From a virus, in IMG/VR virus record IMGVR_UViG_3300037869_000009, positions 10,094 through 74,093 of that record: DNA of 64,000 nt. One strand, 5' to 3'. Positions within the stretch are counted from its first letter, which is position 1. The number at the start of each line of letters is the position of its first letter. The notes beneath the pieces are model-generated. The model was not told where the DNA came from. It made no database searches and worked only from the letters and a program-made list of their open reading frames with translations. The translations under genes and the position numbers were made by a program. Below, piece after piece: positions 9,747 to 61,003 of the stretch.

Positions 9747-9772
9747 AAGTTGTCGCCCCGGGGCGACAACTT
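9747..9772. repeat. Dispersed palindrome copy 1 (AAGTTGTCGCCCCGGGGCGACAACTT)
   Basis: 26-bp perfect palindrome read directly. Confidence 0.95.
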
Positions 9773-9874
9773 AGATTAGGGTATGTGGGACGGGTGCCCC
9801 CGGGCTAGACGGCATGGAGAACAAAATCGTGCCCACCCTTGATAGCAGGGTTCATTGAATACAGGGGCACCCGT

Positions 9875-9898
9875 AGTTGTCGCCCCGGGGCGACAACT
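9875..9898. repeat. Dispersed palindrome copy 2 (AGTTGTCGCCCCGGGGCGACAACT)
   Basis: 24-bp perfect palindrome, 128 bp from copy 1. Confidence 0.95.
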
Positions 9899-10200
9899 CA
9901 CGGTGTCCAGACGCGTGGACCCGGGGGTGGCTCCCAAACCTGCCCATTCAGTTCAGCCCGCAATGCCTTCGGGAGTGCGTCCAGAATCCTTGACACTGAC
10001 CAGCCATGACCGGCGCGCAGTTCCCGGAACCAGCGTTCCAAGATTTTGAAACGACGCCGTGTCTCCTGTGCTGTCATTTGGCAAGGGTGTTCACGGTATG
10101 ACTGCGCAATGGTGGCGTGAAATGCAGCAAACACACGCGCATGTTTTGCGGTGTCTACCTGTCCCCGGGTCAACATCGCTTCCAACAGTTCGCATGCCAT
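9898..10200 (-). CDS. Hypothetical protein
   Basis: 100-aa ORF, operon context. Confidence 0.65.
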   Translation of the reverse strand: MACELLEAMLTRGQVDTAKHARVFAAFHATIAQSYREHPCQMTAQETRRRFKILERWFRELRAGHGWSVSRILDALPKALRAELNGQVWEPPPGPRVWTP

Positions 10201-10210
10201 AGGTCCGAGT

Positions 10211-11263
10211 TTAGACCGGTAAAACGGTGCTACGGCAATGACCGTGCAAGGGTGGGAAAATGGCTCCGATACCAGCCAACTGTTTGGGACTCTTTCCCTT
10301 GCTGAACTCGCCTACGTCATCGGCTTTGCCGTAACCACTTCGTGTCACAGTTGCGATCCGAACATTCTTTTCACCCTGTTTCACATACAGAATCCGATTC
10401 CCGTTCTGGTCCGTTCCTTCGTTGACCCAAGGACTGGCCTGGGTGATTTCTTCGGGGTCCTTCAGACTCGTGATCTTGTTGATGTGATTCATCGCGGTTT
10501 CAGTTGTAAACACTGTCCCGTGATAGAACCGGCATACATTCGAAGTCACTTCATCCAACACTGCCTGAAACACCCATTCCGTGATCCCGGCATCGTCAAA
10601 GGCCCCGAACTGCGAAAACGTCCGCGCATGGGTACTGAAGCTGTTAGCCACGACTCGCCAATAACTGGGTCCCCTGGACACACTGTTCCCCAGTGACGTC
10701 TGCAGCGACTTTCCGATCTCGATCGGCCCCTGTCCGGTCTGAAGTCCACGTTCCACAATCCCGCGGGCCCTGCCCGAGTGCCAATCGGCCCGGTTCCCAA
10801 GTTCATCGCGAACATAGTTCGTGGTGATTTGCCGAACCAACTTTTCAACCTTTCGATCGCGGGAAGACAGCTCCGCCCCGATCTCCATCTTGAAAGTGCG
10901 CTTCATGCTGGCCCGGGTAGCCTTGGCAAGCTTGGGCCCCTCGGACTCCAAGATGGCTGCGAACTTCGGGGGCACCGTGGCGATCTTCGCCTTCAGGATC
11001 CGGTTTGCTGCTTTCAGAACCTTGTCCACCTGACCATCCGTCATGCGGTCCCAGCTGACGTCAAGAGTATCCAGCGCAGCCTTCACGGCCCTGGCTTCGT
11101 CCCCGGCCACCGCGGCATTGATCCTGCGGGACAAGCGCTCCGTGATGACTACGAAGTCCGCGGCCTTCAAGGGGTCCAGCGCTTTGGTGATGTCTACCCG
11201 TAGCATCTGGGACGCAAGCTGTTCCGCAGCCAGGGCCCCAGACTGGTAGATCGCAACACTCAC
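10211..11263 (-). CDS. Head morphogenesis protein (SPP1 gp7 / MuF-like)
   Basis: FQAVLDEVTSNVCRFYHG and terminal FPPLHGHCRSTVLPV motifs; follows portal. Confidence 0.9.
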   Translation of the reverse strand: MSVAIYQSGALAAEQLASQMLRVDITKALDPLKAADFVVITERLSRRINAAVAGDEARAVKAALDTLDVSWDRMTDGQVDKVLKAANRILKAKIATVPPKFAAILESEGPKLAKATRASMKRTFKMEIGAELSSRDRKVEKLVRQITTNYVRDELGNRADWHSGRARGIVERGLQTGQGPIEIGKSLQTSLGNSVSRGPSYWRVVANSFSTHARTFSQFGAFDDAGITEWVFQAVLDEVTSNVCRFYHGTVFTTETAMNHINKITSLKDPEEITQASPWVNEGTDQNGNRILYVKQGEKNVRIATVTRSGYGKADDVGEFSKGKSPKQLAGIGAIFPPLHGHCRSTVLPV

Positions 11264-14079: not shown

Positions 14080-14100
14080 TCTCTTTACCTCCAAGGTCCA

Positions 14101-14120
14101 GTATCTCAGAACTGCGATAC
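14101..14120. promoter_or_regulatory. 20-bp operator copy (GTATCTCAGAACTGCGATAC)
   Basis: One mismatch to consensus GTATCYCAG-N4-GRGATAC; between the divergent HTH and sigma4 genes. Confidence 0.7.
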
Positions 14121-14195
14121 CGGATCAAGGCCAATCGATCCGTACGGGAAAACACCAGTATTGAACCGCAAAAAAGGTGGCTATTATGCGGAGTC

Positions 14196-14693
14196 ATGCG
14201 CGTCCCCGCATTCGCCTATCTCGCGTTCTATCGATCCCAGCACCCGACTCCGCGCCGGTCCCACCCGAAGCCAGCTCACAACCCGTGGGATGAACTGGAG
14301 TGGTGGCAGCACCCGGAAGCCATACGCGCCGTCAATGAACACCCCAACGGGATGACACTCGAAGAAATCGGGCGCCACATGGGGATCACTCGGGAACGGG
14401 TCAGGCAAGTGGAAGCCACCGCGCTACGGAAGCTGAAAGAATGCAGCGGGGATGAAGTGATCAACGTGGGCCGCTTCGCGGTTGCGATCCCGGACTGTGA
14501 GCGCTGCGACCAGCCCTACATCCGACGCAATGGACGTGACCGGCGCTGCGACTTATGCGAAGCCAAGCGCCGGAAGAACCGCAGATCCCGGGCCCACATC
14601 AGTCCAGCATTAGGCGTTGCACAGCGGACCGCACTTCATCCGCTGTCATCGTCCAGTGGTCATGTGGAAAGTGGCAGACATAGCGCAGCTTGA
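14196..14693 (+). CDS. Sigma70 region-4-only protein with C-terminal CxxC/CxxC
   Basis: GMTLEEIGRHMGITRERVRQVEATALRKLK = sigma region 4.2 HTH; no region 2. Confidence 0.8.
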   Translation: MRVPAFAYLAFYRSQHPTPRRSHPKPAHNPWDELEWWQHPEAIRAVNEHPNGMTLEEIGRHMGITRERVRQVEATALRKLKECSGDEVINVGRFAVAIPDCERCDQPYIRRNGRDRRCDLCEAKRRKNRRSRAHISPALGVAQRTALHPLSSSSGHVESGRHSAA

Positions 14694-14931
14694 ACGCCTG
14701 GAAGTGCTTCAGTGCCAACACATCGCCCACACAATGGGCAAGAATCGCTACCGCCAGCTGCGCCGGACCACTTCCGGAATACCCCCAGTCCAGACCCGTT
14801 GGCGACTTGCGCAACAGGTCCAGACGGGGGTTCAGGGCTTCTTCGTGAGTCGTGCCGGGCTGTGGCCCGGAGTGCAGGACCACGACACTGCAGCCCGTTA
14901 CGGAACGATGGCCGATGTATTCCACTGACAT
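14599..14931 (-). CDS. DUF6166-like protein
   Basis: SPTGLDWGYSGSGPAQLAVAILA motif (recalled family); ATG at 14931. Confidence 0.7.
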   Translation of the reverse strand: MSVEYIGHRSVTGCSVVVLHSGPQPGTTHEEALNPRLDLLRKSPTGLDWGYSGSGPAQLAVAILAHCVGDVLALKHFQAFKLRYVCHFPHDHWTMTADEVRSAVQRLMLD

Positions 14932-14944
14932 AGGGACCAAACGT

Positions 14945-15154
14945 TTACCGTCTGCAATCCCGCAGTCTATCCGCAATATCGTCCAAGTGCTTCGCCTGTT
15001 CGGCTTCAGCCCCTGCAGACCGTTCCAGGGCCCGCGCAATGCGCTCCATGATGTGGCCCGCATCATCCGCGGCTGCCCTTCCCGTGGGGGCCAGCGCGGC
15101 CCCCAGGCCAAAGGACAGGAACGCAACGAACCCGATTACTGCTGATTGCTTCAT
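14945..15154 (-). CDS. Small signal-peptide/membrane protein with coiled coil
   Basis: MKQSAVIGFVAFLSFGLGAALA hydrophobic N-terminus; promoter immediately upstream. Confidence 0.65.
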   Translation of the reverse strand: MKQSAVIGFVAFLSFGLGAALAPTGRAAADDAGHIMERIARALERSAGAEAEQAKHLDDIADRLRDCRR

Positions 15155-15164
15155 GCTATCGATT

Positions 15165-15184
15165 GTATCCCAGCTGCGGAATAC
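15165..15184 (-). promoter_or_regulatory. Operator copy in promoter ATTGCA-17-TACAAT
   Basis: GTATCCCAGCTGCGGAATAC; -10 lies 7 nt upstream of the ATG at 15154. Confidence 0.75.
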
Positions 15185-15252
15185 TGCAATGCCCCGGATG
15201 AAGTATTTGTTGGCACGATTCTGGGGGCCCGGGCCAGGGGATCCAGGGGGCC

Positions 15253-15267
15253 GATAGCTTAGCTATC
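15253..15267. repeat. GATAGC-TTA-GCTATC inverted motif copy 1
   Basis: Exact 15-mer, intergenic. Confidence 0.85.
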
Positions 15268-15401
15268 TGCGCCGGGGAAACAGACCGCTGAACGTCCCCA
15301 GATAGGGGCGATCACCAAATCGCCCAAAAACGAAGCTAAGTATATGAAATCATTCAGGACACCCCCGATCGCCAGATCGGCGATTCGGGGGATCACTTCG
15401 G

Positions 15402-15626
15402 TCAGACTTCGAAGGTCACCAGACCGGTCCGGTGGCTGACCACCGTGGTGGTCTGGGGCTCTACCCGAAGCTGGGCAGGGTCCAGGACCAGCATGGTCCC
15501 GGAGTCCGCCAAATCGGCGGTAACCACGAAGGCCACCCCGTCCCGGATCTCCCGGACTCGGACTCGAAGTTCCGAGGTACGGAAGCCACGGAGTCCGGAA
15601 GCGATAGCGTAGGTTTTGGTGTTCAT
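15402..15626 (-). CDS. Small early-type hypothetical protein
   Basis: MNTKTYAIASG... 74 aa, AAAGGAA RBS-like sequence upstream. Confidence 0.65.
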   Translation of the reverse strand: MNTKTYAIASGLRGFRTSELRVRVREIRDGVAFVVTADLADSGTMLVLDPAQLRVEPQTTTVVSHRTGLVTFEV

Positions 15627-15652
15627 GGGAGCGGTTCCTTTCGAGTGGTGAG

Positions 15653-15811
15653 TTAGCGTGCGGAGTTGGAAGCAAGCCACTTCACAGCGGCTGCGGGGTT
15701 CCTGCGCTGGCACTTGCTGCAGGGGTACACAACCCGTTCGCTGCAGAGTCCGCCACACAGGGGGCAGTGGCCGGACTTGATCTTGTTGATGGTGGTCTTC
15801 GCGGTGTTCAT
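15653..15811 (-). CDS. Small CxxC/CxxC protein
   Basis: MNTAKTTINKIKSGHCPLCGGLCSERVVYPCSKC...; follows a promoter cassette. Confidence 0.6.
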   Translation of the reverse strand: MNTAKTTINKIKSGHCPLCGGLCSERVVYPCSKCQRRNPAAAVKWLASNSAR

Positions 15812-15830
15812 CTTGCGTTCCCCTTGATTG

Positions 15831-15918
15831 ACTCGACTTCTAAAGAGTATCCCAGATCGGGGATACTGCATAGCCCCCTTCGCAACTATTTTCGAAGTGC
15901 TGGGGAACACTGCGAAAT
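15831..15918. repeat. ~88-bp promoter cassette, copy A (copy B at 16299-16387)
   Basis: Near-identical direct repeat, roughly 9 differences by eye. Confidence 0.9.
15847..15866 (-). promoter_or_regulatory. Operator copy (GTATCCCAGATCGGGGATAC)
   Basis: Consensus match; minus-strand -10 TACTCT. Confidence 0.85.
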
Positions 15919-15920
15919 GG

Positions 15921-16094
15921 TCACTTTTGTGTCCAGGGTTCGCTTCGCAACCGAGCCACGATCCCTTCAGCGGTTGCGCGGTAACAGACGCGAGTCCAGA
16001 ACTCGCCATCGATCCGGACTTCATACGCGGTGCGGTCCAGCACCCCGAACAAACCCCAGTTGTTGGGCACTTCCACGATTGTGATCTCTTTCAT
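15921..16094 (-). CDS. Small hypothetical protein (57 aa), not in the ORF track
   Basis: Manual translation MKEITIVEVPNNWGLFGVLDRTAYEVRIDGEFWTRVCYRATAEGIVARLRSEPWTQK. Confidence 0.55.
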   Translation of the reverse strand: MKEITIVEVPNNWGLFGVLDRTAYEVRIDGEFWTRVCYRATAEGIVARLRSEPWTQK

Positions 16095-16096
16095 GA

Positions 16097-16276
16097 CTAC
16101 TCCAGCACCACCACGTTTACAGGCAATGTGATCTCATTTAGGCGCCACCGGACCCACTGGTCAGGGGCCACTTCCCGGACGGTTCCACCACTTGCAAGTT
16201 CGTAGAACCGGAGTCCGATCCCATACGAGTTGACCACAGTTTCAATCCGCCCGTTTACCTTGATCTGCTTTGGCAT
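16097..16276 (-). CDS. Small hypothetical protein (59 aa), not in the ORF track
   Basis: Manual translation MPKQIKVNGRIETVVNSYGIGLRFYELASGG...VVVLE; GGGAG RBS; follows cassette B. Confidence 0.6.
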   Translation of the reverse strand: MPKQIKVNGRIETVVNSYGIGLRFYELASGGTVREVAPDQWVRWRLNEITLPVNVVVLE

Positions 16277-16298
16277 CTGCTGCGCTCCCGTTTGCTAC

Positions 16299-16387
16299 AC
16301 TCGACTTCTAAAGAGTATCCCAGTTCGGAGATACTGCATAGCCCCCAGCACCAACTATTTTCGAAGTGCTGGGGACCACTGCGGAAT
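16299..16387. repeat. ~88-bp promoter cassette, copy B
   Basis: Direct repeat of 15831-15918. Confidence 0.9.
16315..16334 (-). promoter_or_regulatory. Operator copy (GTATCCCAGTTCGGAGATAC)
   Basis: Consensus match. Confidence 0.85.
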
Positions 16388-16887
16388 CAGCGCAGCGTGA
16401 GCGCACCATATCGCGCCATCCCAGGCTTGCTGGGGTCGAAGATGTTTCCGCGCGCAAAGTTCTTTTCCGGGGCCTTCCAGCTAGCAGGCTTCAAAATGTC
16501 CCCAGTTTCCCGAACAATGAAGACCAGCACGCTTCTGCCAGTGCCGTGGATCGTCGCAATCCGGACGTACTTCGGACCGATCCTGTTGATCTCCACCGTG
16601 GCGTTCGGTCCCACGATCTCCTGCGCACGCTTCAGCCAGGCAGCCAAAGCCGTGTTGAAATCCGGGGCTGCATCCGGTGCGGACTCCGCTTCCGGGGCTT
16701 CTGGGAGCGCCACAGAAGGCGCCACCGCTGCGGACTGGGCAACCGCCGGGGCCGCTTCCAGACGGGCCTGCAGGGCCCTGCAGCGCGCCAGCAGCACGTC
16801 CCCCAGGACAATGTTCCCGGCAACGTAGGCTTTGCTGGCCTGGTCCGCGGTGGTCTGCAGTTCGGTCTGAAGTTCGTTGCGTTCCAT
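16387..16887 (-). CDS. Conserved phage early-type protein (GDILKPASWKAP...RGNI motif)
   Basis: KYVRI...SV..F...TGDILKPASWKAP...RGNIF motif recalled from many phage hypotheticals; ATG at 16887. Confidence 0.75.
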   Translation of the reverse strand: MERNELQTELQTTADQASKAYVAGNIVLGDVLLARCRALQARLEAAPAVAQSAAVAPSVALPEAPEAESAPDAAPDFNTALAAWLKRAQEIVGPNATVEINRIGPKYVRIATIHGTGRSVLVFIVRETGDILKPASWKAPEKNFARGNIFDPSKPGMARYGALTLR

Positions 16888-16921
16888 CTTGCTACCCCGT
16901 GATTGACTCGACTCCCTAATA

Positions 16922-16941
16922 GTATCCCAGATCTGGGATAC
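16922..16941 (-). promoter_or_regulatory. Operator copy in promoter TTGATT-17-TACTAT
   Basis: GTATCCCAGATCTGGGATAC (perfect palindrome) fills the -35/-10 spacer. Confidence 0.9.
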
Positions 16942-16987
16942 AATCAACAGGGTCCCCGATGTTTTTTTTTCGGGGACCCCGGAACGG

Positions 16988-17197
16988 TCACCACAAACCG
17001 ATCGCGAGTCCCGCGATCTTCGTGGCGTAGGTGGTGGGGCAAGCACGCTTGCCCAGACGTTCCATGGTGGAACGAACGTCCGCCATGAAGATGGGAAGGT
17101 TGTGGGCGTTGGTTGCCCACGTCCGGATGGAGTCGGACTCCACCTGGGAAAGGGCCGTGGTGAAGAAGATTTCTGCTTTGGTGCTGCGCTTGGCCAT
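16988..17197 (-). CDS. Small early-type hypothetical protein
   Basis: MAKRSTKAEIFF... 69 aa; followed by GC hairpin at ~16951-16980. Confidence 0.65.
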   Translation of the reverse strand: MAKRSTKAEIFFTTALSQVESDSIRTWATNAHNLPIFMADVRSTMERLGKRACPTTYATKIAGLAIGLW

Positions 17198-17233
17198 CGT
17201 TCGTTCCCCCGTGATTGACTCGACTTCTAAAGA

Positions 17234-17253
17234 GTATACCAGTACCGGGATAC
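17234..17253 (-). promoter_or_regulatory. Operator copy in promoter TTGAAT-17-TACTCT
   Basis: GTATACCAGTACCGGGATAC. Confidence 0.85.
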
Positions 17254-17318
17254 ATTCAAGCGCTCTGGTGACCTGGACTCCAATCTTTTTTTTCTTTTGT
17301 CCTACACGCAAACAGTCA

Positions 17319-17350
17319 TAGACAGTATCCCAGTCATGGGATACAATCAA
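17319..17350. promoter_or_regulatory. Overlapping bidirectional sigma70-like promoters sharing one operator (17325-17344)
   Basis: Plus strand TAGACA-17-TACAAT; minus strand TTGATT-17-TACTGT; operator GTATCCCAGTCATGGGATAC. Confidence 0.8.
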
Positions 17351-17423
17351 TGGAGTAGGGACAGGGAAGCGGGAACCGGAGCCGGACCCAGGGCACCTTG
17401 ACATTTTCTCAAGATGGCCCACA

Positions 17424-17708
17424 ATGGAAGGGAAGTATTTTCGAATGGATGCAGTTCAGGCGTTAGCGGATGCGCGGGGTTACGCGCTGGCTGGCCGTGT
17501 TCGATTCACGAAGCACGGAACCAACGAAATGAAGGCAGCATTCGCGGACGTGGATGACGTGATGAACGCCCTAATCAAGGGAACGCACTGTGGTCCCGGG
17601 GATCGTCCCGGACGCTGGAGAATCACGGGCCCGGACTTGTCCGGTACCCACGACCTGACTGTGGTGGTGGTATTCGAAAACGGTGTTCTTGTAGTCACAG
17701 TGTGGTGA
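17424..17708 (+). CDS. DUF4258-family (RelE-like fold) putative toxin
   Basis: GRVRFTKHGTNEM...DDVMNAL...RWRITGPDLSG..LTVVV pattern; start may be 17445. Confidence 0.75.
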   Translation: MEGKYFRMDAVQALADARGYALAGRVRFTKHGTNEMKAAFADVDDVMNALIKGTHCGPGDRPGRWRITGPDLSGTHDLTVVVVFENGVLVVTVW

Positions 17709-17713
17709 AACAA

Positions 17714-18184
17714 ATGGCAAAAACGAAGACGTGTGGACTGTGCAACACAGGGGTATGGCGACCCGTGGATCTCGACTTCACGCAAGCGATTGCCGGGATT
17801 AGCTTCGCTGCGGTGCTGCCTGCGGAACGGTGTTCGCACTGCGGGGAATCAGCACTTTCTCTACAAGTGATGAAAGCTTGGGAACTGGGGGTGGCGCAGC
17901 AACTGGGGGATCTCGCGATCAGGACCGGGGACGCGTTCCGGTTCATGCGGAAGTCCCTGGGTCTGTCCGGGGTGGCGCTGGCCAACCTGCTAGGGGTGGC
18001 TGCTGAGACTGTTTCGCGCTGGGAAAATGTGGCCCCCGATGCGCATGCGTTCGTGTTGCTGACCACGATGGTGGCCGATCGGATTGCCGGAACTAGTGCC
18101 ACGCGGGACCGCTTGCGGGCCACTGGGGGCACGCGTCCCTTGGAACCGGTTGCGGTTACCCTCCCCCGGCTGAAGGCTTCCTAG
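17714..18184 (+). CDS. MqsA-like antitoxin (Zn finger + XRE HTH)
   Basis: CGLC...CSHCGE N-terminal Zn finger; FRFMRKSLGLSGVALANLLGVAAETVSRWEN HTH; paired with DUF4258 gene. Confidence 0.8.
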   Translation: MAKTKTCGLCNTGVWRPVDLDFTQAIAGISFAAVLPAERCSHCGESALSLQVMKAWELGVAQQLGDLAIRTGDAFRFMRKSLGLSGVALANLLGVAAETVSRWENVAPDAHAFVLLTTMVADRIAGTSATRDRLRATGGTRPLEPVAVTLPRLKAS

Positions 18185-18251
18185 CGCCGCTGGGACCCGG
18201 GAATCGCGTCCCGGGTCTGCAGCCCCTGGGACGCCAGGGCTTCCGAGCCCC

Positions 18252-18266
18252 GATAGCTTAGCTATC
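18252..18266. repeat. GATAGC-TTA-GCTATC inverted motif copy 2
   Basis: Exact 15-mer, intergenic. Confidence 0.85.
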
Positions 18267-18359
18267 TGCCCCCTGGACTCCTGGAACCTGGTGGCACAAA
18301 GGCGTGCCAAATCTTTCTTCGGGACGGTTCACGAAATCTTCGTCTCCCCTGTTGTATTT

Positions 18360-18379
18360 GTATCTCAGTGGCGAGATAC
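18360..18379 (+). promoter_or_regulatory. Operator copy (GTATCTCAGTGGCGAGATAC)
   Basis: Consensus match upstream of 18416 gene. Confidence 0.85.
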
Positions 18380-18415
18380 TAGTATTCAGGCAGTAGGGAC
18401 ACCGGAGAAACGAAG

Positions 18416-18736
18416 ATGACCATCACGAAGACCCACGACCAACGCACCGTATACGCAGCTGAAACTGAACTCCCGGCATGGGCCCGCGGGTGGACCCAAT
18501 GTGACAACACCGGCGCCAGCTACAGCACGTATCTCGCGGAAGCGGACCGCGAACACTCGAAGGCTGACCTGCTGCAGATTGAAGCGGAAGCCAAGGCATT
18601 GCGCACCCGCGCACAGTGCGAAGCTGCACTAGCGGAACTAGGAGTCCGGGCCGGTGGAACGTGCGCATCGATGCGGAATATGTACGTCATCGTGAAGTAT
18701 GCGGACCTGTGGCCCCTTCGACAGGTCAGCAAGTAA
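18416..18736 (+). CDS. Small early-type hypothetical protein
   Basis: 106 aa; GGAGAAACGAAG-ATG leader shared with the 19401 gene. Confidence 0.7.
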   Translation: MTITKTHDQRTVYAAETELPAWARGWTQCDNTGASYSTYLAEADREHSKADLLQIEAEAKALRTRAQCEAALAELGVRAGGTCASMRNMYVIVKYADLWPLRQVSK

Positions 18737-18791
18737 GCCGGATTCCGGGGGTCCCGAACTGGGACCCCTGCATCGTCTCTGCCTACACCGC

Positions 18792-18806
18792 GATAGCTTA
18801 GCTATC
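18792..18806. repeat. GATAGC-TTA-GCTATC inverted motif copy 3
   Basis: Exact 15-mer, intergenic. Confidence 0.85.
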
Positions 18807-18888
18807 TGGCCCATCGATCCGAAGCGCCGGAAGCTCTGGACAATCGTGCCAAATCTATTTTCGAAAATCGTCTTCCGACCCGTTGTTA

Positions 18889-18908
18889 GTATCCCAGTTC
18901 CGGGATAC
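18889..18908 (+). promoter_or_regulatory. Operator copy in promoter TTGTTA-17-TACTCT
   Basis: GTATCCCAGTTCCGGGATAC followed by inverted copy of the conserved leader TCTTTAGAAGTCGGGTC. Confidence 0.9.
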
Positions 18909-18945
18909 TCTTTAGAAGTCGGGTCAGCAACAAAGGTAAACGAAG

Positions 18946-19254
18946 ATGGCAAATCAAATGAGCGGTGTAGTGCAGCTGGGTGGGCATATCGATGTGGGCC
19001 AATGCGAAACACTTGGCAGTGGCCGGGTGGTGTGTGACCTGTGGGCCGATGTGATTCCGCACTGGGGTCTGAAGCCCGTAGCCGGCGCACGGTGGCGTGT
19101 TGCACTCCTGGGAGCGAACAGCGTGGAAGAACTCCGCATCGAAGCCCGCAAGCGCATCGATGAACTTCGCACGGCATGCGCCCACGGTTTGATTGTCAGC
19201 TACCGGGGCCCCGCGGACCGCTATTACAGCCGGTTCTACACCCGCGAAATCTGA
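18946..19254 (+). CDS. Small early-type hypothetical protein
   Basis: 102 aa after promoter cassette; GC hairpin at ~19263-19281 follows. Confidence 0.7.
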   Translation: MANQMSGVVQLGGHIDVGQCETLGSGRVVCDLWADVIPHWGLKPVAGARWRVALLGANSVEELRIEARKRIDELRTACAHGLIVSYRGPADRYYSRFYTREI

Positions 19255-19344
19255 AAACGGATCGGGGGCCCAACGGCCCCCCGTTTGGACGGCTTCCCGA
19301 AGTCTGGAAACTATCTTCGGGAATCGGTCCGAATGCACTGGTTA

Positions 19345-19364
19345 GTATCTCAGTTCCGAGATAC
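19345..19364 (+). promoter_or_regulatory. Operator copy (GTATCTCAGTTCCGAGATAC), -10 TACATT
   Basis: Consensus match upstream of 19401 gene. Confidence 0.85.
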
Positions 19365-28424: not shown

Positions 28425-28444
28425 TTGTCGCCCCGGGGCGACAA
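28425..28444. repeat. Dispersed palindrome copy 3 (TTGTCGCCCCGGGGCGACAA)
   Basis: 20-bp perfect core, intergenic. Confidence 0.95.
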
Positions 28445-28703: not shown

Positions 28704-28729
28704 CAGTTGTCGCCCCGGGGCGACAACTG
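28704..28729. repeat. Dispersed palindrome copy 4 (CAGTTGTCGCCCCGGGGCGACAACTG)
   Basis: 26-bp perfect palindrome, intergenic. Confidence 0.95.
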
Positions 28730-31504: not shown

Positions 31505-31728
31505 CCGTCCTGGACTTCGAAATCATCACGTTTCGCCCCGGTGACCGCGTGGTCTGGAACCGCACGAAGGCCAGATGGGCCGCGCTACATAGCCCGCGTG
31601 GCACCGTGCTGGGGTTCACCAAGGTGGGACTCATCAGGGTTCAACTCGACGGGGGCCGCATCGTGGCGCTTCCGCAACGTCGATTGAAGTTGTCGCCCCG
31701 GGGCGACAACTCCGGGGCCCGCTCATGA
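31501..31728 (+). CDS. Small SH3-like protein; C-terminus encoded by palindrome copy 5
   Basis: FRPGDRVVW...GTV.GFT..GLIRVQLDG; ends KLSPRGDNSGARS. Confidence 0.6.
   Translation: MTVLDFEIITFRPGDRVVWNRTKARWAALHSPRGTVLGFTKVGLIRVQLDGGRIVALPQRRLKLSPRGDNSGARS
31688..31711. repeat. Dispersed palindrome copy 5
   Basis: 24-bp perfect palindrome inside the 3' end of a CDS. Confidence 0.95.
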
Positions 31729-32195
31729 CATCGAAGTGGGAGCAAATAATGGCGGACACGTTGGCGGAGTCCGGCCCCGGGAACCCGGAACTGATTGACG
31801 AAGCCAAATGCAGGGCCATCGCTGAAGCCATCTTGAAGCGTTACGAAGATTCGGGGGAGTCACTGGATCACAACGCGATAGCCCGGGACCTTCGAATCGA
31901 ACTCTATCCCCATCTCAAAGCTGCGGGGCCCTACGCTGCCCAAGCATTTGTGGGCCCCATAATCAAAGAGTTCGGGAAGCGCCGTGCGGAAGCCCATCGC
32001 ATGGAGGAAATCGCATTCATGACTGTGGGTCCCGATGAACTGGGGGACCCCGTGGGTGCAACGCATCGATGCCCGAACTGTGGCGAACTCCACGACGTCA
32101 TCAACTCAGACATTCTTCACGCCATCAAATGCCCGCGGAGCGGTGACCTATACCTGGTCGGGATCCGGGGCCAAGTCATCAACAAGCGCTCATGA
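31725..32195 (+). CDS. Hypothetical protein with C-terminal Zn ribbon
   Basis: CPNCGE.H...CP..G..YLVG. Confidence 0.65.
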   Translation: MTSKWEQIMADTLAESGPGNPELIDEAKCRAIAEAILKRYEDSGESLDHNAIARDLRIELYPHLKAAGPYAAQAFVGPIIKEFGKRRAEAHRMEEIAFMTVGPDELGDPVGATHRCPNCGELHDVINSDILHAIKCPRSGDLYLVGIRGQVINKRS

Positions 32196-38510: not shown

Positions 38511-38727
38511 CCCCCTTGTGTGGTAGCGCCGGCACAAACGCGGTCCAGTCAGCCTTCAGTGTCCATTTCTCCATCAACTCACGGTGCGGGATCTGGATCA
38601 CTTCAACGGCGCCGTGGCACCGCACCGTGATTACAAACGAATCCGAAAGCAAATCCACTTCGGTGTAGACGCATTGAACCTTGAATCCGCACACCGCACA
38701 GGTTGGTACCGGAAAATCCACGTTCAA
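38476..38727 (-). CDS. Hypothetical Cys protein
   Basis: P.CAVC...V.CHG; convergent with the plus block. Confidence 0.6.
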   Translation of the reverse strand: MNVDFPVPTCAVCGFKVQCVYTEVDLLSDSFVITVRCHGAVEVIQIPHRELMEKWTLKADWTAFVPALPHKGVTDVVARSESR

Positions 38728-38957
38728 CCTGCACTCCCCGCGGGTGGTACCACGACGTAGCGCCGGCCCTGTCGCTGGATGACCTTGCGAACTTCGAGCT
38801 CCACCAAAGCACGCTTCAGTCTGATTTCACAGAGCCCCGTGGAACCAAGCTCACGGAAAGTCGAAGGCCCGTGCTGCTTCAGGTATTCATGAACGCTGAA
38901 GCGGGCCATGGAGTGTTCTTCGGACACCGTTCGTTTCCGCAACGTCATTATTTCCAT
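38724..38957 (-). CDS. Small winged-HTH-like protein
   Basis: VHEYLKQHGP.TF.EL...ALVELE.RK.I...GRRY. Confidence 0.55.
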   Translation of the reverse strand: MEIMTLRKRTVSEEHSMARFSVHEYLKQHGPSTFRELGSTGLCEIRLKRALVELEVRKVIQRQGRRYVVVPPAGSAG

Positions 38958-38996: not shown

Positions 38997-39020
38997 AGTT
39001 GTCGCCCCGGGGCGACAACT
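38997..39020. repeat. Dispersed palindrome copy 6
   Basis: 24-bp perfect palindrome 2 nt after a stop codon. Confidence 0.95.
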
Positions 39021-39022: not shown

Positions 39023-39232
39023 TCAACGCGTGCGCTTCGCTCGCTCGCTCCACAGATACTGTGCCTTCCGAGCATGGGTGATCATCATCAACGCAAACAG
39101 AGCTAGTACCCACAAGGGTTCATGCTTCGCTGCCAGCAGCGCGGTGGCCCCGCTATAGGCCAGCGCGAAGAAGACGTGGAATCCGGGGACGTTATCCAGC
39201 TTGCAGTCACTTGGACCCATCAGTTGAACCAT
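39023..39232 (-). CDS. Small membrane protein
   Basis: Two hydrophobic segments. Confidence 0.5.
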   Translation of the reverse strand: MVQLMGPSDCKLDNVPGFHVFFALAYSGATALLAAKHEPLWVLALFALMMITHARKAQYLWSERAKRTR

Positions 39233-46257: not shown

Positions 46258-47086
46258 CTGACACACCCCATCGACGCAGCATGCCAACACCCAACTGAAG
46301 CCACTTCGCAGCGTGCTCCGGTGACAGCGCCCCACCCGTTGCGCCTTCCACATCGTCATCGCCCACGGGGTGCCCCATGGCCAAGCGTTCGGCCTGCAGC
46401 GCCATCTTGCTGGCTTCGGTGCCAAGCTTCGTCAGCACCGCCAGCTTCTGCATGAAGCTGATTCCTTCCTTCAGGGTCAGGTCCGTGGACTCGTCTTCCA
46501 GCAACTTGCGAAGCCTGGGCATCAGGGCCTTTGCCCCGGCCAGCAGTTCGCCAGTGACGTCCGCCAACTCCGTAGCGTTCCGACGTGCCCGCTTGATAAG
46601 CTTGCCCTCTTCGGATCGTGTAAGCGCTGCATCGCGCTGCGATGCCTTACGCGTCTTTTCGCGCTCCACCATCAACGCCATGTTGCGTTGCGTACTGGCT
46701 TCAGGTGTCGCGAGTTCAGCCGCTGTAGGAATCGGTGGTTCTGCCACGACTTCGGCACCACGTACTGCAGCTTCTTCAGCTTCGGCCCGCATCTTCCGGG
46801 CCAGCACCTTGTCCGCTTCCAGGAGTTCGGACACCGGGGGGCGCCCCTGTCGTGGCCAACCCTTGTTCCATGCGATGCTGGCCCGGTTCCTGGGGCACCC
46901 CATCAAGGCAGCGACTTTGACGATCTGACCGGGATGCTTGCGGTAGGTTTCGATCCAGCGTTCCCACTCCGCATCACTGACCCGCTTTGGGATACCTGCG
47001 GTGGGTGACCGGAAGCCCCCACGCAACGGCTTCGGTTTTTCTTCGTCCACGGACCCGAGTTTGCGACGCGTTGCAGGCCCTGTCAC
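46127..47086 (-). CDS. Probable terminase small subunit
   Basis: N-terminal HTH-like region (W..G.W) and helical body directly upstream of terL. Confidence 0.6.
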   Translation of the reverse strand: MTGPATRRKLGSVDEEKPKPLRGGFRSPTAGIPKRVSDAEWERWIETYRKHPGQIVKVAALMGCPRNRASIAWNKGWPRQGRPPVSELLEADKVLARKMRAEAEEAAVRGAEVVAEPPIPTAAELATPEASTQRNMALMVEREKTRKASQRDAALTRSEEGKLIKRARRNATELADVTGELLAGAKALMPRLRKLLEDESTDLTLKEGISFMQKLAVLTKLGTEASKMALQAERLAMGHPVGDDDVEGATGGALSPEHAAKWLQLGVGMLRRWGVSDESQSGPVEVRALSDSSSESEPPEPDDPAELAPGIGSTRSNLN

Positions 47087-49514: not shown

Positions 49515-50316
49515 CACGGACCCGTTTGTATCGACAGCCCCGGCACGATAACACCTTGCCAGCAGCAAGGTGCCCAGCAGCGATCAACCGTTCGCGCCCA
49601 CACCTGCAGCGGCAACGGTAACCGTGACGGGGCTTCTTTCCGAACCGCACTGCGCAAACCACGATCCAGAACCCAACCTGTGTACCGGTGGCGATGTTGA
49701 TCTGTTTGCGGGGTCCGATCCCTCTTGCGCGCCGCTCCCGCATTCTCTGCACCCGACGTGCTTCTACAGGGGTAGTCCCAAACTTGGCAGCCAATCGCTG
49801 TTCGGCCTGGGTGCGGCCAAACTTCAATCTACATGCGTCGGTGCAATGCACCGCGGCCCGCGTGCGAACCGGGCAGAACAACACTTCGCAGTTACGACAG
49901 CAACAAACCCAGCGATCAGAATCGCGCTCTGCCCGCTTCAACCGTGCATGTTGCCGTTGCGCAGAAGCACGGGCCTTGTGGGGATTGGATGCGCGCCAAT
50001 GCAACGCGTACTGCCTGAGCCATTCCCTACGATTCGCTAGACGTTCTTCAAGGACGATCTCCACATCGTGCTGACGATGGCTGTATTCCCTGAACTCTTC
50101 GTGGATCTCCGCACGAAGGTCACTCCAGCGCGTCCGCTGACTTCGGCCAACACGAGACACGTTCCGGAAGTCATCAACAACTTCGTCACGTACCGCGCCC
50201 CCGGGGCTGGGTGACGGTGGTAGTAGTACCCAACGCGCCTTGGGCCCGTAAACAAGTGCGCCATCTACCCAATGCCAGCCAGCGTCCCATGACGCACCTG
50301 CATGGGGTGCCGTCAT
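49501..50316 (-). CDS. Cys-rich putative DNA-binding protein (homing-endonuclease-type accessory domains)
   Basis: C..C...F.P......C...CR and G..VG.W.V......C.C.CG......L..G...SC.GC; no HNH core. Confidence 0.55.
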   Translation of the reverse strand: MTAPHAGASWDAGWHWVDGALVYGPKARWVLLPPSPSPGGAVRDEVVDDFRNVSRVGRSQRTRWSDLRAEIHEEFREYSHRQHDVEIVLEERLANRREWLRQYALHWRASNPHKARASAQRQHARLKRAERDSDRWVCCCRNCEVLFCPVRTRAAVHCTDACRLKFGRTQAEQRLAAKFGTTPVEARRVQRMRERRARGIGPRKQINIATGTQVGFWIVVCAVRFGKKPRHGYRCRCRCGRERLIAAGHLAAGKVLSCRGCRYKRVRDERA

Positions 50317-50783
50317 TCCGAGTCCTGAAGCGCAATGATCAAACCTCCATCTGGCTGCGGAGTGCACTTCAAAAACATCGGCACGGTCCGGGCTTTCTTC
50401 ACATTCTCCGCAGACACCACAACGGGTCCATCATGTTCAGCCAGCACCATCATCAGCATCGATAGTGCCGCTTGATTCGTGGCTTCGGCCCGGAACTGCG
50501 CCTTCTGCTTACGGGCCAACTTGGCTTCGCGAGCCCTGCGGTGCTTCCGGTTCACGGGCTGTTCAGACTGTCGCCCCGGGGCGACAGCTTGACGGGCCTG
50601 CTGTTCAAGGTCCCGGTACGCTGCCAAACTCATGAAGTCGCCACGGTCCGTGCACATTCCGACTTCGGGATTGCCGGGATCGCAGGGGTGCCACTCGCCC
50701 TTCACAAAGGACGGCACCACAGGGTTCGGCAACGCTGCCATGTCCCGCAACATCATCACGTGGTTTTCGGATTCAGATTGCAT
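50313..50783 (-). CDS. Hypothetical protein
   Basis: 156 aa; contains palindrome variant. Confidence 0.6.
   Translation of the reverse strand: MQSESENHVMMLRDMAALPNPVVPSFVKGEWHPCDPGNPEVGMCTDRGDFMSLAAYRDLEQQARQAVAPGRQSEQPVNRKHRRAREAKLARKQKAQFRAEATNQAALSMLMMVLAEHDGPVVVSAENVKKARTVPMFLKCTPQPDGGLIIALQDSE
50568..50587. repeat. Dispersed palindrome copy 7, compensatory variant (CTGTCGCCCCGGGGCGACAG)
   Basis: 20-bp perfect palindrome within a CDS; flanks changed symmetrically (T/A to C/G). Confidence 0.85.
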
Positions 50784-50789: not shown

Positions 50790-51149
50790 TCATTCACCGA
50801 TCCGTTCCAGCACCACGGTGGGTTGCCGACTCGCATAGGTACGCAGCACGTGGTCACGATTGAGATCCAATTCGCCGAACACCACCACCCGATCCCCGGG
50901 GCCCAGTAGCTGCAGCATTGCATCATCGCGGATGACCCGGGCTTGCGTGATGCGCTTCGACGCATTGGCCGGGGTATGGACCACAATCGGAACCAGACCG
51001 CTGCAGCGTGCCTGACGTACCGCTGCGGACTGTGCCCCGAAGGGGTCCCCATCCGTGATGACCCAGGTTCCCGCGGGAAGGGCCTGGACGTAGTCCCGGA
51101 CCCGCTGCTGGTCACTCCACGTCATCGAACCCAGAACCAGTACCTTCAC
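50790..51149 (-). CDS. Divergent second SLOG/DUF2493-like protein
   Basis: MKVLVLGSMTWSD...LP....VITDG...GA pattern. Confidence 0.55.
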   Translation of the reverse strand: MKVLVLGSMTWSDQQRVRDYVQALPAGTWVITDGDPFGAQSAAVRQARCSGLVPIVVHTPANASKRITQARVIRDDAMLQLLGPGDRVVVFGELDLNRDHVLRTYASRQPTVVLERIGE

Positions 51150-55985: not shown

Positions 55986-55989
55986 AGCC

Positions 55990-58717: not shown

Positions 58718-58918
58718 CTAAATCTCTCGTGCCGTCCTAGTAAACACACTCACGAACACCACGTATTCGTCATCAATCAGCTGCACACCGGCCCGAAACT
58801 TCAAGTCATACATGATTCCGTCTTCGAGATTCGGATGTTCGTCACACACCTTGTCCAGGAACTTGTCCAGCTCGATATGGCACGCACTACGATTGACCAT
58901 CACCTCAGACTTAGACAT
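58718..58918 (-). CDS. Hypothetical protein
   Basis: 66 aa, coupled. Confidence 0.55.
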   Translation of the reverse strand: MSKSEVMVNRSACHIELDKFLDKVCDEHPNLEDGIMYDLKFRAGVQLIDDEYVVFVSVFTRTAREI

Positions 58919-58929
58919 ATAGCCCGCTC

Positions 58930-60348
58930 TCAGAATGGGATTTCGTCACCCTGTTCCAGGCCACAGGTGGTGCAAGTTCCAGCTTCCACGGGGCCGCTGC
59001 AGCTGAAACACACGTCATCCGTAACGGATGCCGCTGGCGCGGCTGGTACGGATGCCTGTGGTGCTACGGCCTGCGGTTCAGGCTCCGCATCCACTTCATA
59101 TTTGGCACCGCACTTCGGGCATTCCGTGGCCGTGACTGCCATCGGCGTTTTGCAGTCATCACAAGGAATCATTTCCACTTCGGGCTGTAGCGGTGGTGCC
59201 GGTGGATCCACACGCTTGCGCCGTGTCTGACTCCCAGCTGGCGCAGACGCTGCCTGTGGTGCGCTGGTACCGGGGCGCTGCACTGCCCGCGTTGCAGGGC
59301 CTGCAGCCGGTGCATTTCCGTTTGGCTTCGCTACTACAGGGGCGGTGCCGTTGCTGGGGCGCTGCACTGCCCGCGTTGTTGGAGTTGCAACGGTGGAACG
59401 CTGCGCTTGTCCAGGACTGGCCGCAGGCCGTATCTTCGGGCGCTCCCCAGTGCAAAGCGCCATCCGAACGTTTTGGTCTTCGCTGAAGATCTCATCAAGC
59501 GGGAGTTCAACTTGCGCCGCTGCTTCGAACGCAGCCCTGATTTTCTCCATGTCACCATCTTGCGGAACCGTGTGGCGTACTGGGTCCGGATACTCTTCCG
59601 AAGTAATGAGCGCAAAGATCTCATCGGTGCATTCCAAACCTTCCGCCTTGTAAACTGAGTAAGCATTCATTGGGGAAGCTGCGCGCTTGTCATACTCCCA
59701 CCTAAATGGGTAAGGACGTAGCAATGGGTCACCCGCTTCTTCCCCCAGCATTTTCAGTTGCTGCGCAATAACCTCACCCATCTTACGCCCGAGTAAACCG
59801 GACTCCCTGGTCAACATCACGCCACTACCTATGTCTTCGTGGTCCACCACCACAAAGATGTACTCTTGTTTGGCATCCAGAGAATGCCCAAAGTTCTGGC
59901 GCCCACGCTTTGTCAGCCCGGACAGCTCGCCCCGTGACCAACTTTCCACACTGCTGTCCTTCGGGTTTTTCCACATGAAGATCGAGTCTTCCAATCCGAT
60001 ATGGTCAGCACGCCGCAACCACTCCCGAAGTAATAGAAACGGATCACGATCCGGAAGCACGCGCAAAATGCCGCTGGATTTGTCGCGAAAATGCTGCTGC
60101 CCCGTGATGGTTTCAGGGTCCGGTGACACAAAACGAAGGAACCGCATGAATCGCTTCGGGGGTCCGCCACGATTGTCCTTGTCTTCCTGGACATCAATCA
60201 TGTTGAACTGATGTGCATAGTAGGACAGTGGCGTGACCGCGGTGTGTAACCACACTGTCTTCTCTTTGTCATCCTTCCAGTTCTTCAGCCACTGGCCACC
60301 GCCAAACCGCTCCCGTGTCTTCTGTACGAATGCACCGATCCCTGGCAT
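58930..60348 (-). CDS. Candidate single-stranded-DNA-binding protein with P/A-rich linker and C-terminal Zn ribbons
   Basis: Aromatic-rich N-terminal domain, CxxC pairs, acidic ...GDEIPF tail typical of SSBs; next to RecA. Confidence 0.55.
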   Translation of the reverse strand: MPGIGAFVQKTRERFGGGQWLKNWKDDKEKTVWLHTAVTPLSYYAHQFNMIDVQEDKDNRGGPPKRFMRFLRFVSPDPETITGQQHFRDKSSGILRVLPDRDPFLLLREWLRRADHIGLEDSIFMWKNPKDSSVESWSRGELSGLTKRGRQNFGHSLDAKQEYIFVVVDHEDIGSGVMLTRESGLLGRKMGEVIAQQLKMLGEEAGDPLLRPYPFRWEYDKRAASPMNAYSVYKAEGLECTDEIFALITSEEYPDPVRHTVPQDGDMEKIRAAFEAAAQVELPLDEIFSEDQNVRMALCTGERPKIRPAASPGQAQRSTVATPTTRAVQRPSNGTAPVVAKPNGNAPAAGPATRAVQRPGTSAPQAASAPAGSQTRRKRVDPPAPPLQPEVEMIPCDDCKTPMAVTATECPKCGAKYEVDAEPEPQAVAPQASVPAAPAASVTDDVCFSCSGPVEAGTCTTCGLEQGDEIPF

Positions 60349-60349
60349 G

Positions 60350-61003
60350 TCAGACCTTCCTTCCCACGAAGCCGTCCGCAATACGGTTCAACTGCCTACC
60401 TCGTTCGCTCCATGCATCCTTCAATCCTTCAAGCGCCCTAAAGGTCCCGTGCATTTCGGCCTTACGGTTTTCAATTGACTGCCACTGGTCGCCCCAGTTC
60501 CCGATCACGCGGTCCTGGATTTCCTGCAGCGTAGGTGCCTTGGCTGACCCCCCAGATGCCTTCAATGCAGACTTTTCGGACTCCAGCTGTTCACGTGCCG
60601 TGGACCGCATCACTTCGAGCTCACGATCCATTTCAGCGCTGAACTTCAGGTCCGCGATCTTGGCAACACGTGACAACCGGATGGCGTCATAGTAGTTGCG
60701 GCCCGCATTATCCACAGCCCTGATCACTACCCCGTATTCAGCGGTGGCTTCACCCAACGTGAGTTCATCGGTCAAGCGCTTGTAAGACGACTGAACGTCA
60801 ATGCGTAGGATGTCATTTACAACGTGACCCCACGGTGCCGGAAATACTCCGGACGCTGGTTCATCCGTAGGTTGCTGCGCTACCGCTGGGTGAGGCTTGG
60901 GCCCCGAAGGGGGTTCCCCGGATGCCTGCACCTGTGGTGGCGGTTCTGGGTTGTCGCCCCGGGGCGACAACTGGTCATCGACACGTCTACGCCGTGTTGC
61001 CAT
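60350..61003 (-). CDS. Hypothetical coiled-coil protein
   Basis: 217 aa; N-terminal DQLSPRGDN encoded by palindrome copy 8. Confidence 0.65.
   Translation of the reverse strand: MATRRRRVDDQLSPRGDNPEPPPQVQASGEPPSGPKPHPAVAQQPTDEPASGVFPAPWGHVVNDILRIDVQSSYKRLTDELTLGEATAEYGVVIRAVDNAGRNYYDAIRLSRVAKIADLKFSAEMDRELEVMRSTAREQLESEKSALKASGGSAKAPTLQEIQDRVIGNWGDQWQSIENRKAEMHGTFRALEGLKDAWSERGRQLNRIADGFVGRKV
60950..60971. repeat. Dispersed palindrome copy 8 (GTTGTCGCCCCGGGGCGACAAC)
   Basis: 22-bp perfect palindrome inside the 5' end of a CDS. Confidence 0.95.

Follow-up and report, generated by a model that had tools for sequence, protein, structure and literature searches.

A short palindrome recurs, letter for letter, throughout the genome of an uncultured phage, and the question that we address here is which molecule reads it and to what effect. 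The phage (G000) is represented by a 107,034-bp IMG/VR virus record (IMGVR_UViG_3300037869_000009; 98% complete, 58% GC), and bases 10094-74093 of that record, a stretch of 64,000 nucleotides, make up the window that was analyzed. Only one sequencing run contains G000, a soil DNA metagenome that is its probable source. With modest confidence, we favor the view that the palindromes are double-stranded DNA sites comparable to parS or to the operator of KorB, that they are most likely read by a homodimer of a phage protein, p89, and that they may mark the boundaries of gene modules.

An invariant palindrome dispersed through the phage genome

The 18-mer TGTCGCCCCGGGGCGACA has eight exact copies in the window (Table 1), all at the positions given in an initial annotation of this DNA. 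There were no further matches in the window at up to two mismatches, and none in 100 dinucleotide-preserving shuffles. Over the whole record of 107,034 bp there were 12 exact copies and no degenerate ones, with 0 expected; the nearest variants in the record differ at three or more positions and are probably unrelated. These counts bear out the initial claim that the repeat cannot be due to chance. Most copies in the window are flanked by AGT...ACT, so that a 24-bp perfect palindrome is the commonest form, and comparison of the flanks agreed with the longer extents (20-26 bp) reported before. Similarity between copies is lost abruptly at the palindrome edges. Copy 7 had been described as carrying symmetric flank changes, which is weakly true: a single complementary pair extends it to 20 bp, not a set of changes. 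There was no T-run 3' of any copy, in keeping with the initial view that these are not U-tract terminators.

The palindrome is not a host repeat. Among genomes representing 185,579 prokaryote species (one genome for each), TGTCGCCCCGGGGCGACA occurred 46 times, always singly and in unrelated taxa, which is about what composition predicts for high-GC DNA, and none of the 46 genomes was similar to the phage. A repetitive extragenic palindromic (REP) element of the host was therefore rejected, as the initial annotation had also concluded; in no represented genome does the 18-mer approach its abundance in the phage. Its further statement that the site is not a canonical parS was also supported. In a scan of metagenomes, at least 120 contigs contained TGTCGCCCCGGGGCGACA, mostly as single high-GC occurrences compatible with chance or unrelated loci.

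At one recurrent locus in soil metagenomes, the flanks of the 18-mer are conserved as well (cgtcgcgt...acaaattc). Its members (L183, L184, L187, L206, L211, L241, L243 and approximately 15 more) are unrelated to the phage clade, and no p89-like gene was detected near the 18-mer at this locus.

Related phages carry their own versions of the site

G000 encodes a portal, a MuF-like protein, an intein-bearing terminase, PolB, a UvsX/RecA-like recombinase, Mre11/Rad50-like SbcCD, a primase, a DnaB-like helicase, two DNA methylases and an integrase, with nearly all genes on the minus strand; approximately 40 of its 122 called genes were annotated by family search. A DNA search of a phage collection found no relative of G000, and the nearest cultured phages have a portal identity of only 32-34%. 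A scan of viral contigs with PolB gave no matches, and an alignment search with closer p89 homologues returned just the four relatives already known. Portal relatives are numerous in metagenomes, on contigs of approximately 100-110 kb.

Several of these portal relatives have a repeated palindrome of their own, with the architecture TGT-NNN-C-YCGR-G-NNN-ACA. There are 16 copies of TGTCYCCTCGAGGRGACA in G001 and 14 copies of TGTAACCTCGAGGTTACA in G003, and TGTGGCCCCGGGGCCACA, with variants, is present in 13 copies in G002 and nine in G005. The other versions are GTCTCCCCGGGGAGAC (L166), TGTCTACTCGAGTAGACA (L167), TGTCTCCCCGGGGAGACA (L168), GTCCCACCGGTGGGAC (L169), TGTAWCCCCGGGGWTACA (L170), TGTAWCCTCGAGGWTACA (L171) and TGGAAACCCGGGTTTCCA (G004). 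Because many more distant portal relatives lack a motif of this kind around the portal gene, we assign it to a subclade.

The sites are conserved in sequence and position

G002 and G005 are approximately 85% identical in alignable DNA. At the seven G002/G005 sites with alignable flanks, only 1 of 126 positions differs, compared to a flank divergence of approximately 15%, and imperfect half-sites (TGTAGCC, TGTAATC) are also retained between the two phages. By this sequence comparison, the sites are under purifying selection. L164, with 82-86% nucleotide identity to G000, has the exact 18-mer at all three syntenic positions covered. The AGT flanks are not conserved in L164 at the shared sites, indicating that the selected unit is the 18-mer.

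Three positions persist among phages whose site sequences differ. One lies about 35-42 nucleotides (nt) inside the called start of the open reading frame (ORF) that follows PolB (G000, L164, L171), a second in the divergent region that precedes the ResIII helicase operon (G000, L164, L166, L170, L171, G003), and a third separates the MuF-like block from the head-assembly genes (G000, G003). When relatives were examined for conservation, syntenic sites were found to be retained, and related phages had their own versions of both the site and the protein described below.

The sites also coincide with seams of the genome mosaic, as judged from three kinds of observation. Homology between G002 and G005 stops exactly at a site edge in two cases; a G000 site lies at the end of a methylase gene that has no counterpart in G001 and G003; and in several phages a pair of sites flanks a small inverted cassette whose content varies, encoding a 98-residue zinc protein in G000 and PadR in L164. 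Recombination at the sites does seem to occur and is probably a by-product.

The initial annotation had offered a tiny mobile palindromic element as one explanation. An element of this kind, spread by mobility or recombination and without a function of its own, would account for identical copies with abrupt edges, for the homology breaks and the methylase gene just described, and for the apparent 18-nt in-frame insertion, in two reading frames, in the distant genes described below. It is not supported as the main explanation, and we regard it as highly improbable, because the sites, imperfect halves included, are syntenic and conserved between diverged relatives (82-86% identical), and because their positions outlast changes in site sequence that track a protein (see below). 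In addition, there are no copies beyond chance in bacterial genomes, and the approximately 40 G000 genes that were searched included no RAYT, IS200 or other transposase, the remaining genes and those of G001-G003 being unannotated.

The methylase gene is itself unusual. It lies to the left of the window (genomic 6099-7445) and encodes a 448-residue N6/N4 DNA methylase inserted among tail genes, for which G002 shows just a 73-residue partial match. The palindrome copy is just past the catalytic domain, in the last 20 or so codons.

Gene context and probable recognition as double-stranded DNA

Independent gene calls for close and distant relatives placed 10 of 19 sites in intergenic DNA, which makes up 3-11% of the sequence (p about 1e-7), in agreement with the initial description of the copies as often at gene junctions. 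Another four sites are 25-42 nt after a called start, and five are well inside genes (two small ORFs, a 267-residue ORF, primase, and the 3' end of a UvrD-like gene). There was no conserved column beyond 12 positions to either side of the site center, and the sole enriched downstream word was AAGGA, which resembles a ribosome-binding site. In G002 and G003, a TAA or TAG stop codon is often part of a half-site.

A perfect palindrome near the ends of genes could act in RNA, as a terminator lacking a U-tract, a 3'-end stabilizer or a processing hairpin. A GC-rich stem of 7-10 bp with a 4-nt loop is possible, one site is at a convergent gene junction, and 15 sites begin 0-8 nt after the upstream stop codon, even where the gap to the downstream gene is 200-600 nt (from our own rough gene calls in four genomes). 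Several properties of the sites nevertheless make a role in RNA very unlikely. The central 4 bp, at the position of the hairpin loop, are self-complementary in every version and change symmetrically, from CCGG to TCGA, between phages. Variants in a single half have no preference for the sense strand (the G·U-compatible strand is sense in six and antisense in five), and the T/C variation of G001 is consistent with two halves that assort independently. Throughout L170 and L171, each copy pairs a TGTAAC half with a TGTATC half, which would put an A·A or T·T mismatch in any hairpin and which a protein could read as "W". Hairpins need no identical copies, yet 12 of 12 are identical. Together with the lack of a U-tract and the presence of sites inside essential genes, such as those for primase and UvrD, the self-complementary center, strand-independent variants and mismatching halves point indirectly to two-fold recognition of double-stranded DNA rather than an RNA hairpin. 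We consider it very probable that the sites are recognized, as double-stranded DNA, by a two-fold symmetric protein.

A candidate binding protein

The lead to such a protein came from four viral contigs with a GC content of 48-50% that carry the identical 18-mer. They share one protein with G000, and nothing else detectable: a homologue of p89 (27% identity over 107 residues, E = 5e-10). In those contigs, the homologue is a match to Pfam DUF3102, and its gene stands first in a replication module of the usual siphovirus kind; for L007, the match to DUF3102 (PF11300) scored 25.5 bits against a cut-off of 24.4, and the protein aligns with p89 at E = 5e-10. We use p89 for the 439-residue product of a gene on the minus strand at genomic positions 73598-74917 (window 63505-64824, running past the window end). 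The gene is directly upstream of PolB and follows directly on a gene, outside the window, for a Sigma70_r2 protein. All relatives examined have a gene of the same position and size as the sigma gene directly before the p89 homologue; of the eight with gene tables that were read, six have a recorded Sigma70_r2 match for it, the exceptions being L164 and L170. This looks like a conserved sigma-p89-PolB gene string. The sigma gene, just right of the window (genomic 74952-75548, minus; L057:859-1455), encodes 198 residues with Sigma70 region 2.

There are approximately 4,500 homologues of p89. AlphaFold models were built from alignments of 29 homologues for the whole protein and 16 for its N-terminal domain. 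In these models, a confidently predicted zinc ribbon at the N-terminus is joined through a disordered acidic linker to a helical domain, and a beta domain forms the C-terminus. The helical domain (residues 214-336) can be superposed on the DNA-binding domains of ParB, Spo0J and Noc (Z 9.8, 9.6, 8.9 and 8.2; root-mean-square deviation 2.4-3.5 Å over 106-116 residues), although, for helical domains, Z values below about 13 can stem from a shared arrangement. The best match was ParB 6t1f_D (Z 9.8, 2.4 Å over 109 residues), and the DNA-binding domains of KorB and SopB gave Z 5.8 and 4.8. ParB-family chains account for most of the top rows in the Foldseek and VIA lists, and the neighbors of p89 in the ESM Atlas belong to DUF3102 and ParB/Spo0J clusters. 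We conclude with moderate confidence that p89 is predicted to carry a ParB-type helix-turn-helix (HTH) DNA-binding domain. The N-terminal domain, folded alone (predicted local distance difference test score 90), had no structural match above Z 3.6.

Other parts of known systems were not found in G000-G003. There was no ParB_N CTPase domain (PF02195), except for one sub-threshold match elsewhere in G002; searches for ParA (PF13614, PF01656) gave just weak P-loop matches in the DnaB-like helicase; and the Ogr_Delta zinc finger (PF04606) had no match at E ≤ 1.

The candidate binders named in the initial annotation (ribbon-helix-helix 30723, winged HTH 38724, XRE 23402, basic 42377 and TerS) did not gain support. 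The supposed winged HTH protein (77-residue ORF, 38724-38957) and the 69-residue ORF at 39023-39232 matched no Pfam or PHROGs family, and these small ORFs beside copy 6 are not conserved in relatives. An 83-residue zinc ORF (38476-38727) neighbors the 77-residue ORF. The genes in the inverted cassettes were also rejected as binders, because G000 and L164 have the same site and different genes.

The recognition helix of p89 co-varies with the site

The predicted recognition helix begins at an arginine that is invariant in 29 homologues, with histidine in G004, and the residues after this arginine track positions 4-5 of the half-site. Helices starting with RQTAY, RQNVY or RQQAY are found with TGTCG (G000, L164, L209, L006, L005), and those starting with RTTMY, RTTAY, RGTAY or RAMAY with TGTCT (G001, L166, L168, L167). 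RSSAY is found with AGTCC (L169), RESAL or RETAL with TGT followed by a purine or by A/T (G002, G005, G003, L171, L170), and histidine in place of arginine with TGGAAA (G004). L166 provides the most telling pair for this co-variation. Its protein is 41-44% identical to p89 of G000 and 37% identical to that of G001; it has threonine for Gln276 of G000, and the core of its site differs from that of G000 by a single G to T change at position 5, as in G001.

The same 18-mer is inside the genes of distant homologues

Three more contigs, among the metagenome matches listed, encode a p89-type HTH domain, and in all three the 18-mer is inside that gene. With L005 and L006, there are therefore five divergent homologues whose genes include the exact 18-mer, always in one position immediately behind the recognition helix, where it is read as VAPGR in three and SPRGD in two. 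It looks like an 18-nt in-frame insertion in DUF3102-like genes, and the use of two reading frames indicates that the nucleotide sequence, not the peptide, is conserved. The elements that share the 18-mer, always together with this HTH domain, range from 29% to 66% GC; those otherwise unrelated to the phage have 29-58% GC and have only the HTH domain in common with it. In the one with 29% GC, L209, the 18-mer cannot have arisen by composition, and the HTH gene directly follows that of a ParA-type ATPase (AAA_31, E = 3e-32). Going by gene order, this is the classical parA-parB layout with the site inside the second gene, and is likely a partition cassette. The two genes occupy L209:3578-5289, and the 18-mer in the DUF3102-like HTH gene has a GC content of 78%.

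Taken with the fold, the co-variation and this co-occurrence, p89 is a candidate that probably is the protein recognizing the palindromes. The initial annotation had suggested a binding site for a dimeric phage protein, and this is the best-supported reading, given the dyad symmetry, the strand-independent variation, the purifying selection and the co-variation with an HTH protein.

Several observations weigh against p89 as the binder or against a regulatory role, in addition to the caution over Z values. The co-variation comes from about 14 phages, some of which share descent. Two distant homologues, L231 and L245, have the 18-mer of the G000 type together with helices starting with RSYAY and RAYAY, and a simple code of one residue therefore does not hold. 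The Pfam models DUF3102 and Plasmid_parti give no match to p89 itself, and a precomputed Plasmid_parti (PF01672) match listed for p89 was not reproduced. Within this clade, the gene for p89 has no site of its own. The abutment of sites on stop codons looks terminator-like and is not explained by binding alone. A -10-like TANNNT at +31 to +38 is enriched, yet it is present at only 7 of 55 sites, and with no shared promoter motif beside the sites a regulatory role can be proposed only by inference. For a comparable repeat in Cluster O mycobacteriophages, a transcriptional role was judged unlikely (PMC4351075).

Possible roles of the sites

We infer that p89 binds the sites and does so as a dimer, with a consequence of the following kind. 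Each p89 monomer would read one 9-bp half-site, TGT-CG-CC-CC, and p89 plus the 12 sites would be a co-evolved genome-wide set, related phages having changed all of their sites and the start of the recognition helix together. Bound p89 may mark the boundaries of gene modules, acting as a global regulator like KorB or Noc or as an insulator of transcription units, and the sites would incidentally provide short homologies for modular recombination. Such a role is suggested by the bias toward junctions and stop codons, the inverted cassettes bracketed by sites, and the obligatory pairing with a sigma factor gene. Because neither ParA nor the ParB CTPase domain is present, we do not read the set as a classical partition system.

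A serious alternative to boundary marks is replication initiation, or the organization or segregation of replicating DNA. It is suggested by the presence of the gene in a replication module in two unrelated types of phage, by the site lying within that gene, and by ParA being the partner of one distant homologue. In its most specific form, p89 would be a replication initiator and the palindromes its origins or helicase-loading sites, which we consider unlikely. In the clade, the p89 gene lies between those for a UvrD-like helicase plus the sigma factor and PolB; the L007 homologue heads a Gp157/AAA_24/ResIII/DUF669/primase module; and no other initiator was recognized in the genome annotation. 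Origins are located within genes in lambda O and SPP1 gene 38, and the site is likewise within the gene, in a loop region, in the five distant homologues. A site within a gene is no specific argument for an origin, since spo0J of Bacillus subtilis holds a parS inside its own gene, and the partner gene in L209 encodes ParA, not a replication protein. Furthermore, there would be no precedent for 12-16 identical origins per 100 kb, every site has room for just one dimer and is not part of an iteron array, and inspection by eye showed no marked AT-rich unwinding element beside the sites (the 109-bp spacer between copies 1 and 2 is approximately 47% A+T, compared to 42% genome-wide).

It is distinctly unlikely that a different phage regulator, such as an immunity repressor, binds the sites and silences late and replication operons in the lysogen in the manner of stoperators. 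The stoperators of Cluster A mycobacteriophages, to which the immunity repressor (L5 gp71) binds, are 13-mers that lack symmetry and follow the direction of transcription. The G000 sites are like them in being identical short sequences in the short intergenic spaces of long co-directional operons, often right after stop codons, in a phage that encodes an integrase and would be temperate; stoperators number in the tens. They are unlike stoperators in being perfect palindromes without orientation bias. The inverted cassettes flanked by site pairs, one encoding PadR, and a set of early operators with the same 3+12+3 layout (TAT-N12-ATA) could also be taken to favor another regulator. However, the early operators are a separate motif family with normal operator degeneracy, the cassette genes of G000 and L164 differ while the site is identical, and co-variation or co-occurrence with the site was found for p89 only.

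A broader scenario builds on p89 as the binder, and we put it forward as a tentative speculation that is rather unlikely. A ParB-fold protein that lost ParA and the CTPase domain and gained a zinc ribbon would form, with an 18-bp site, a portable cassette that became clade-wide punctuation in soil phages of approximately 105 kb, possibly of Myxococcota. Their 12-16 sites would mark modules, insulate or time transcription or replication, and serve as recombination breakpoints, with a specificity that one or two residues beside the invariant arginine could re-program.

Comparison with known systems

The closest published case is the dyad repeat of Cluster O mycobacteriophages, which have more than 30 copies of a 17-bp sequence, 5'-TGTTCGGNNNCCGAACA (PMC4351075). 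Corndog has 34 copies with invariant arms and no orientation bias, of which 14 are between ORFs, 10 are close to the 5' ends of ORFs, and the rest are deeper in genes (PMC4351075). Host genomes lack the repeat, and deletions and other indels have arisen through recombination between its copies; the authors proposed a dimeric DNA-binding protein, with three candidates that include a ParB-like protein, and left the function open (PMC4351075). The Cluster O repeat and the G000 site have in common many dispersed invariant copies, TGT...ACA ends and dyad symmetry. They differ in that the Cluster O repeat has a 3-bp variable spacer and another sequence and belongs to an unrelated group of actinobacterial phages. 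No single binder was picked out for Cluster O, whereas for G000 one is nominated by fold, co-variation and co-occurrence across lineages, and in the G000 clade each related phage has its own version of the site.

Members of the ParB superfamily bind inverted repeats of 13-18 bp as dimers through a central HTH and dimerize through a C-terminal domain, which is beta-rich in KorB (PMC5016525). The ParB/Spo0J-parS and Noc-NBS systems resemble that of G000 in the ParB-type HTH, which is predicted for p89, and in perfect palindromes of 14-18 bp that are read by dimers (PMC5016525). ParABS systems differ in having the ParB_N CTPase domain and ParA, in place of which p89 has an N-terminal zinc ribbon. 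The spacing in parS is TGT-N10-ACA, compared to TGT-N12-ACA in G000, and the G000 sites are dispersed and not clustered near an origin.

Plasmid RK2 has 12 operators for KorB. They are palindromes scattered on a mobile element, many of them far from promoters, and KorB is a global regulator (PMC11790492). About a dozen dispersed perfect palindromes in G000 match these in number, symmetry and dispersal, with binding by p89 being a prediction. In the model, p89 ends in a beta domain, as KorB does in the beta-rich domain through which it dimerizes. To slide, KorB requires CTP and its N-terminal domain, and its partners are KorA and IncC (a ParA); that domain is missing from p89, and searches of G000 gave no partners of this kind.

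In the plasmid-prophage N15, the IR1-4 sites are dispersed in the genome. They are inverted repeats bound by SopB (PMC7205306), a ParB-family protein, and these centromere-type palindromes occupy several separate positions of a phage genome, as the candidate p89 sites do in G000. N15 is a plasmid prophage with SopA (a ParA), full-length SopB and four sites, whereas G000 has an integrase and 12 sites. In the late promoters of P2 and P4 that are activated through Ogr-Delta, a TGT-N12-ACA dyad is centered near -55. The spacing of this dyad is that of the G000 site; Ogr_Delta was not found, and the -10-like sequence is as infrequent as described above.

Dispersed invariant dyad repeats were thus known in phages (the 34 Cluster O copies), without a known binder or function. 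What is new here relative to Cluster O is a nominated binder, a recognition rule, and one exact site across lineages. The rule is testable, in that glutamine, threonine or glutamate beside the invariant arginine can be set against half-site positions 4-5, and more than ten phages provide a natural series of matched protein-site pairs. The comparison would also link an uncharacterized DUF3102-like domain family to centromere binding of the ParB type. If the interpretation is correct, the pairs could serve as orthogonal protein-operator pairs for DNA labeling or gene control, and would offer a handle on how large phages mark and shuffle gene modules.

Positions of the copies and other features

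Table 1. Exact copies of the 18-mer in the window, and the part of the p89 gene that the window includes. Positions are those of the window; lengths of gene products are in residues.
Feature	Position	Strand	Palindrome	Context
Copy 1	9751-9768		26 bp (9747-9772)	127 bp from copy 2; upstream of 251-residue head-assembly gene 8983-9738 (minus)
Copy 2	9878-9895		24 bp	Flank overlaps TGA stop of 100-residue ORF 9898-10200 (minus); syntenic with G003 site between MuF-like block and head genes
Copy 3	28426-28443		20 bp	Poorly coding region between leftward block (ends 28263) and rightward block
Copy 4	28708-28725		26 bp	282 bp from copy 3
Copy 5	31691-31708		24 bp	TGA directly before; 16 nt upstream of ATG of gene 31725-32195 (plus)
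Copy 6	39000-39017		24 bp	5 nt after stop of 69-residue gene 39023-39232 (minus); 42 nt before 77-residue ORF 38724-38957
Copy 7	50569-50586		20 bp, divergent flanks	Approximately 200 nt downstream of conserved 119-residue gene 50790-51149 (minus), inside doubtful ORF 50313-50783; G003 site at stop of homologue of the 119-residue gene
Copy 8	60952-60969		22 bp	79 nt after PolB stop (61049); approximately 34 nt inside called start of 217-residue ORF 60350-61003; position occupied in L164 (same 18-mer) and L171 (different site version)
p89 gene, 3' part	63505-64000	minus		Gene runs past window end

The early operators mentioned above are ten 20-bp sequences, GTATCYCAG-NN-CTGRGATAC (GTATCCCAG-N2-CTGGGATAC), in promoter spacers at 14101-19364 of the window. 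They have ordinary degeneracy and form a separate family. Their 3+12+3 layout, TAT-N12-ATA compared to TGT-N12-ACA, suggests a related recognition mode or paralogous binders. A second TGT-N12-ACA family with an asymmetric center (TGTCCCG-YATC-CGGSACA) is present in L061, where the copies lie within approximately 7 kb, and in L115, and G003 has a single copy. This second family probably corresponds to the early operators of G000.

Two other repeats were seen in the early region. Four near-identical promoter-plus-leader cassettes (...GGGATACTCTTTAGAAGTCGAGTCAA...GGGGAACG...ATG) are upstream of small early genes, at window positions 15834 (minus), 16302 (minus), 17221 (minus) and 18907 (plus). 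A 13-bp palindrome, ATAGCTWAGCTAT, has four copies, at 15254, 18253, 18793 and 20309, in GC-rich surroundings.

The gene for the large terminase (window 43561-46425) contains a homing-endonuclease/intein insert, with a match to Hom_end. The ResIII helicase ORF (genomic 81280-83595) encodes 771 residues, compared to 464-501 in relatives, and is thus approximately 300 residues longer; it contains CLSGDT...VVHNS, which is intein-like by eye, no family search having been made. G002 and G003, both complete, have short direct terminal repeats of 120 and 127 bp, respectively.

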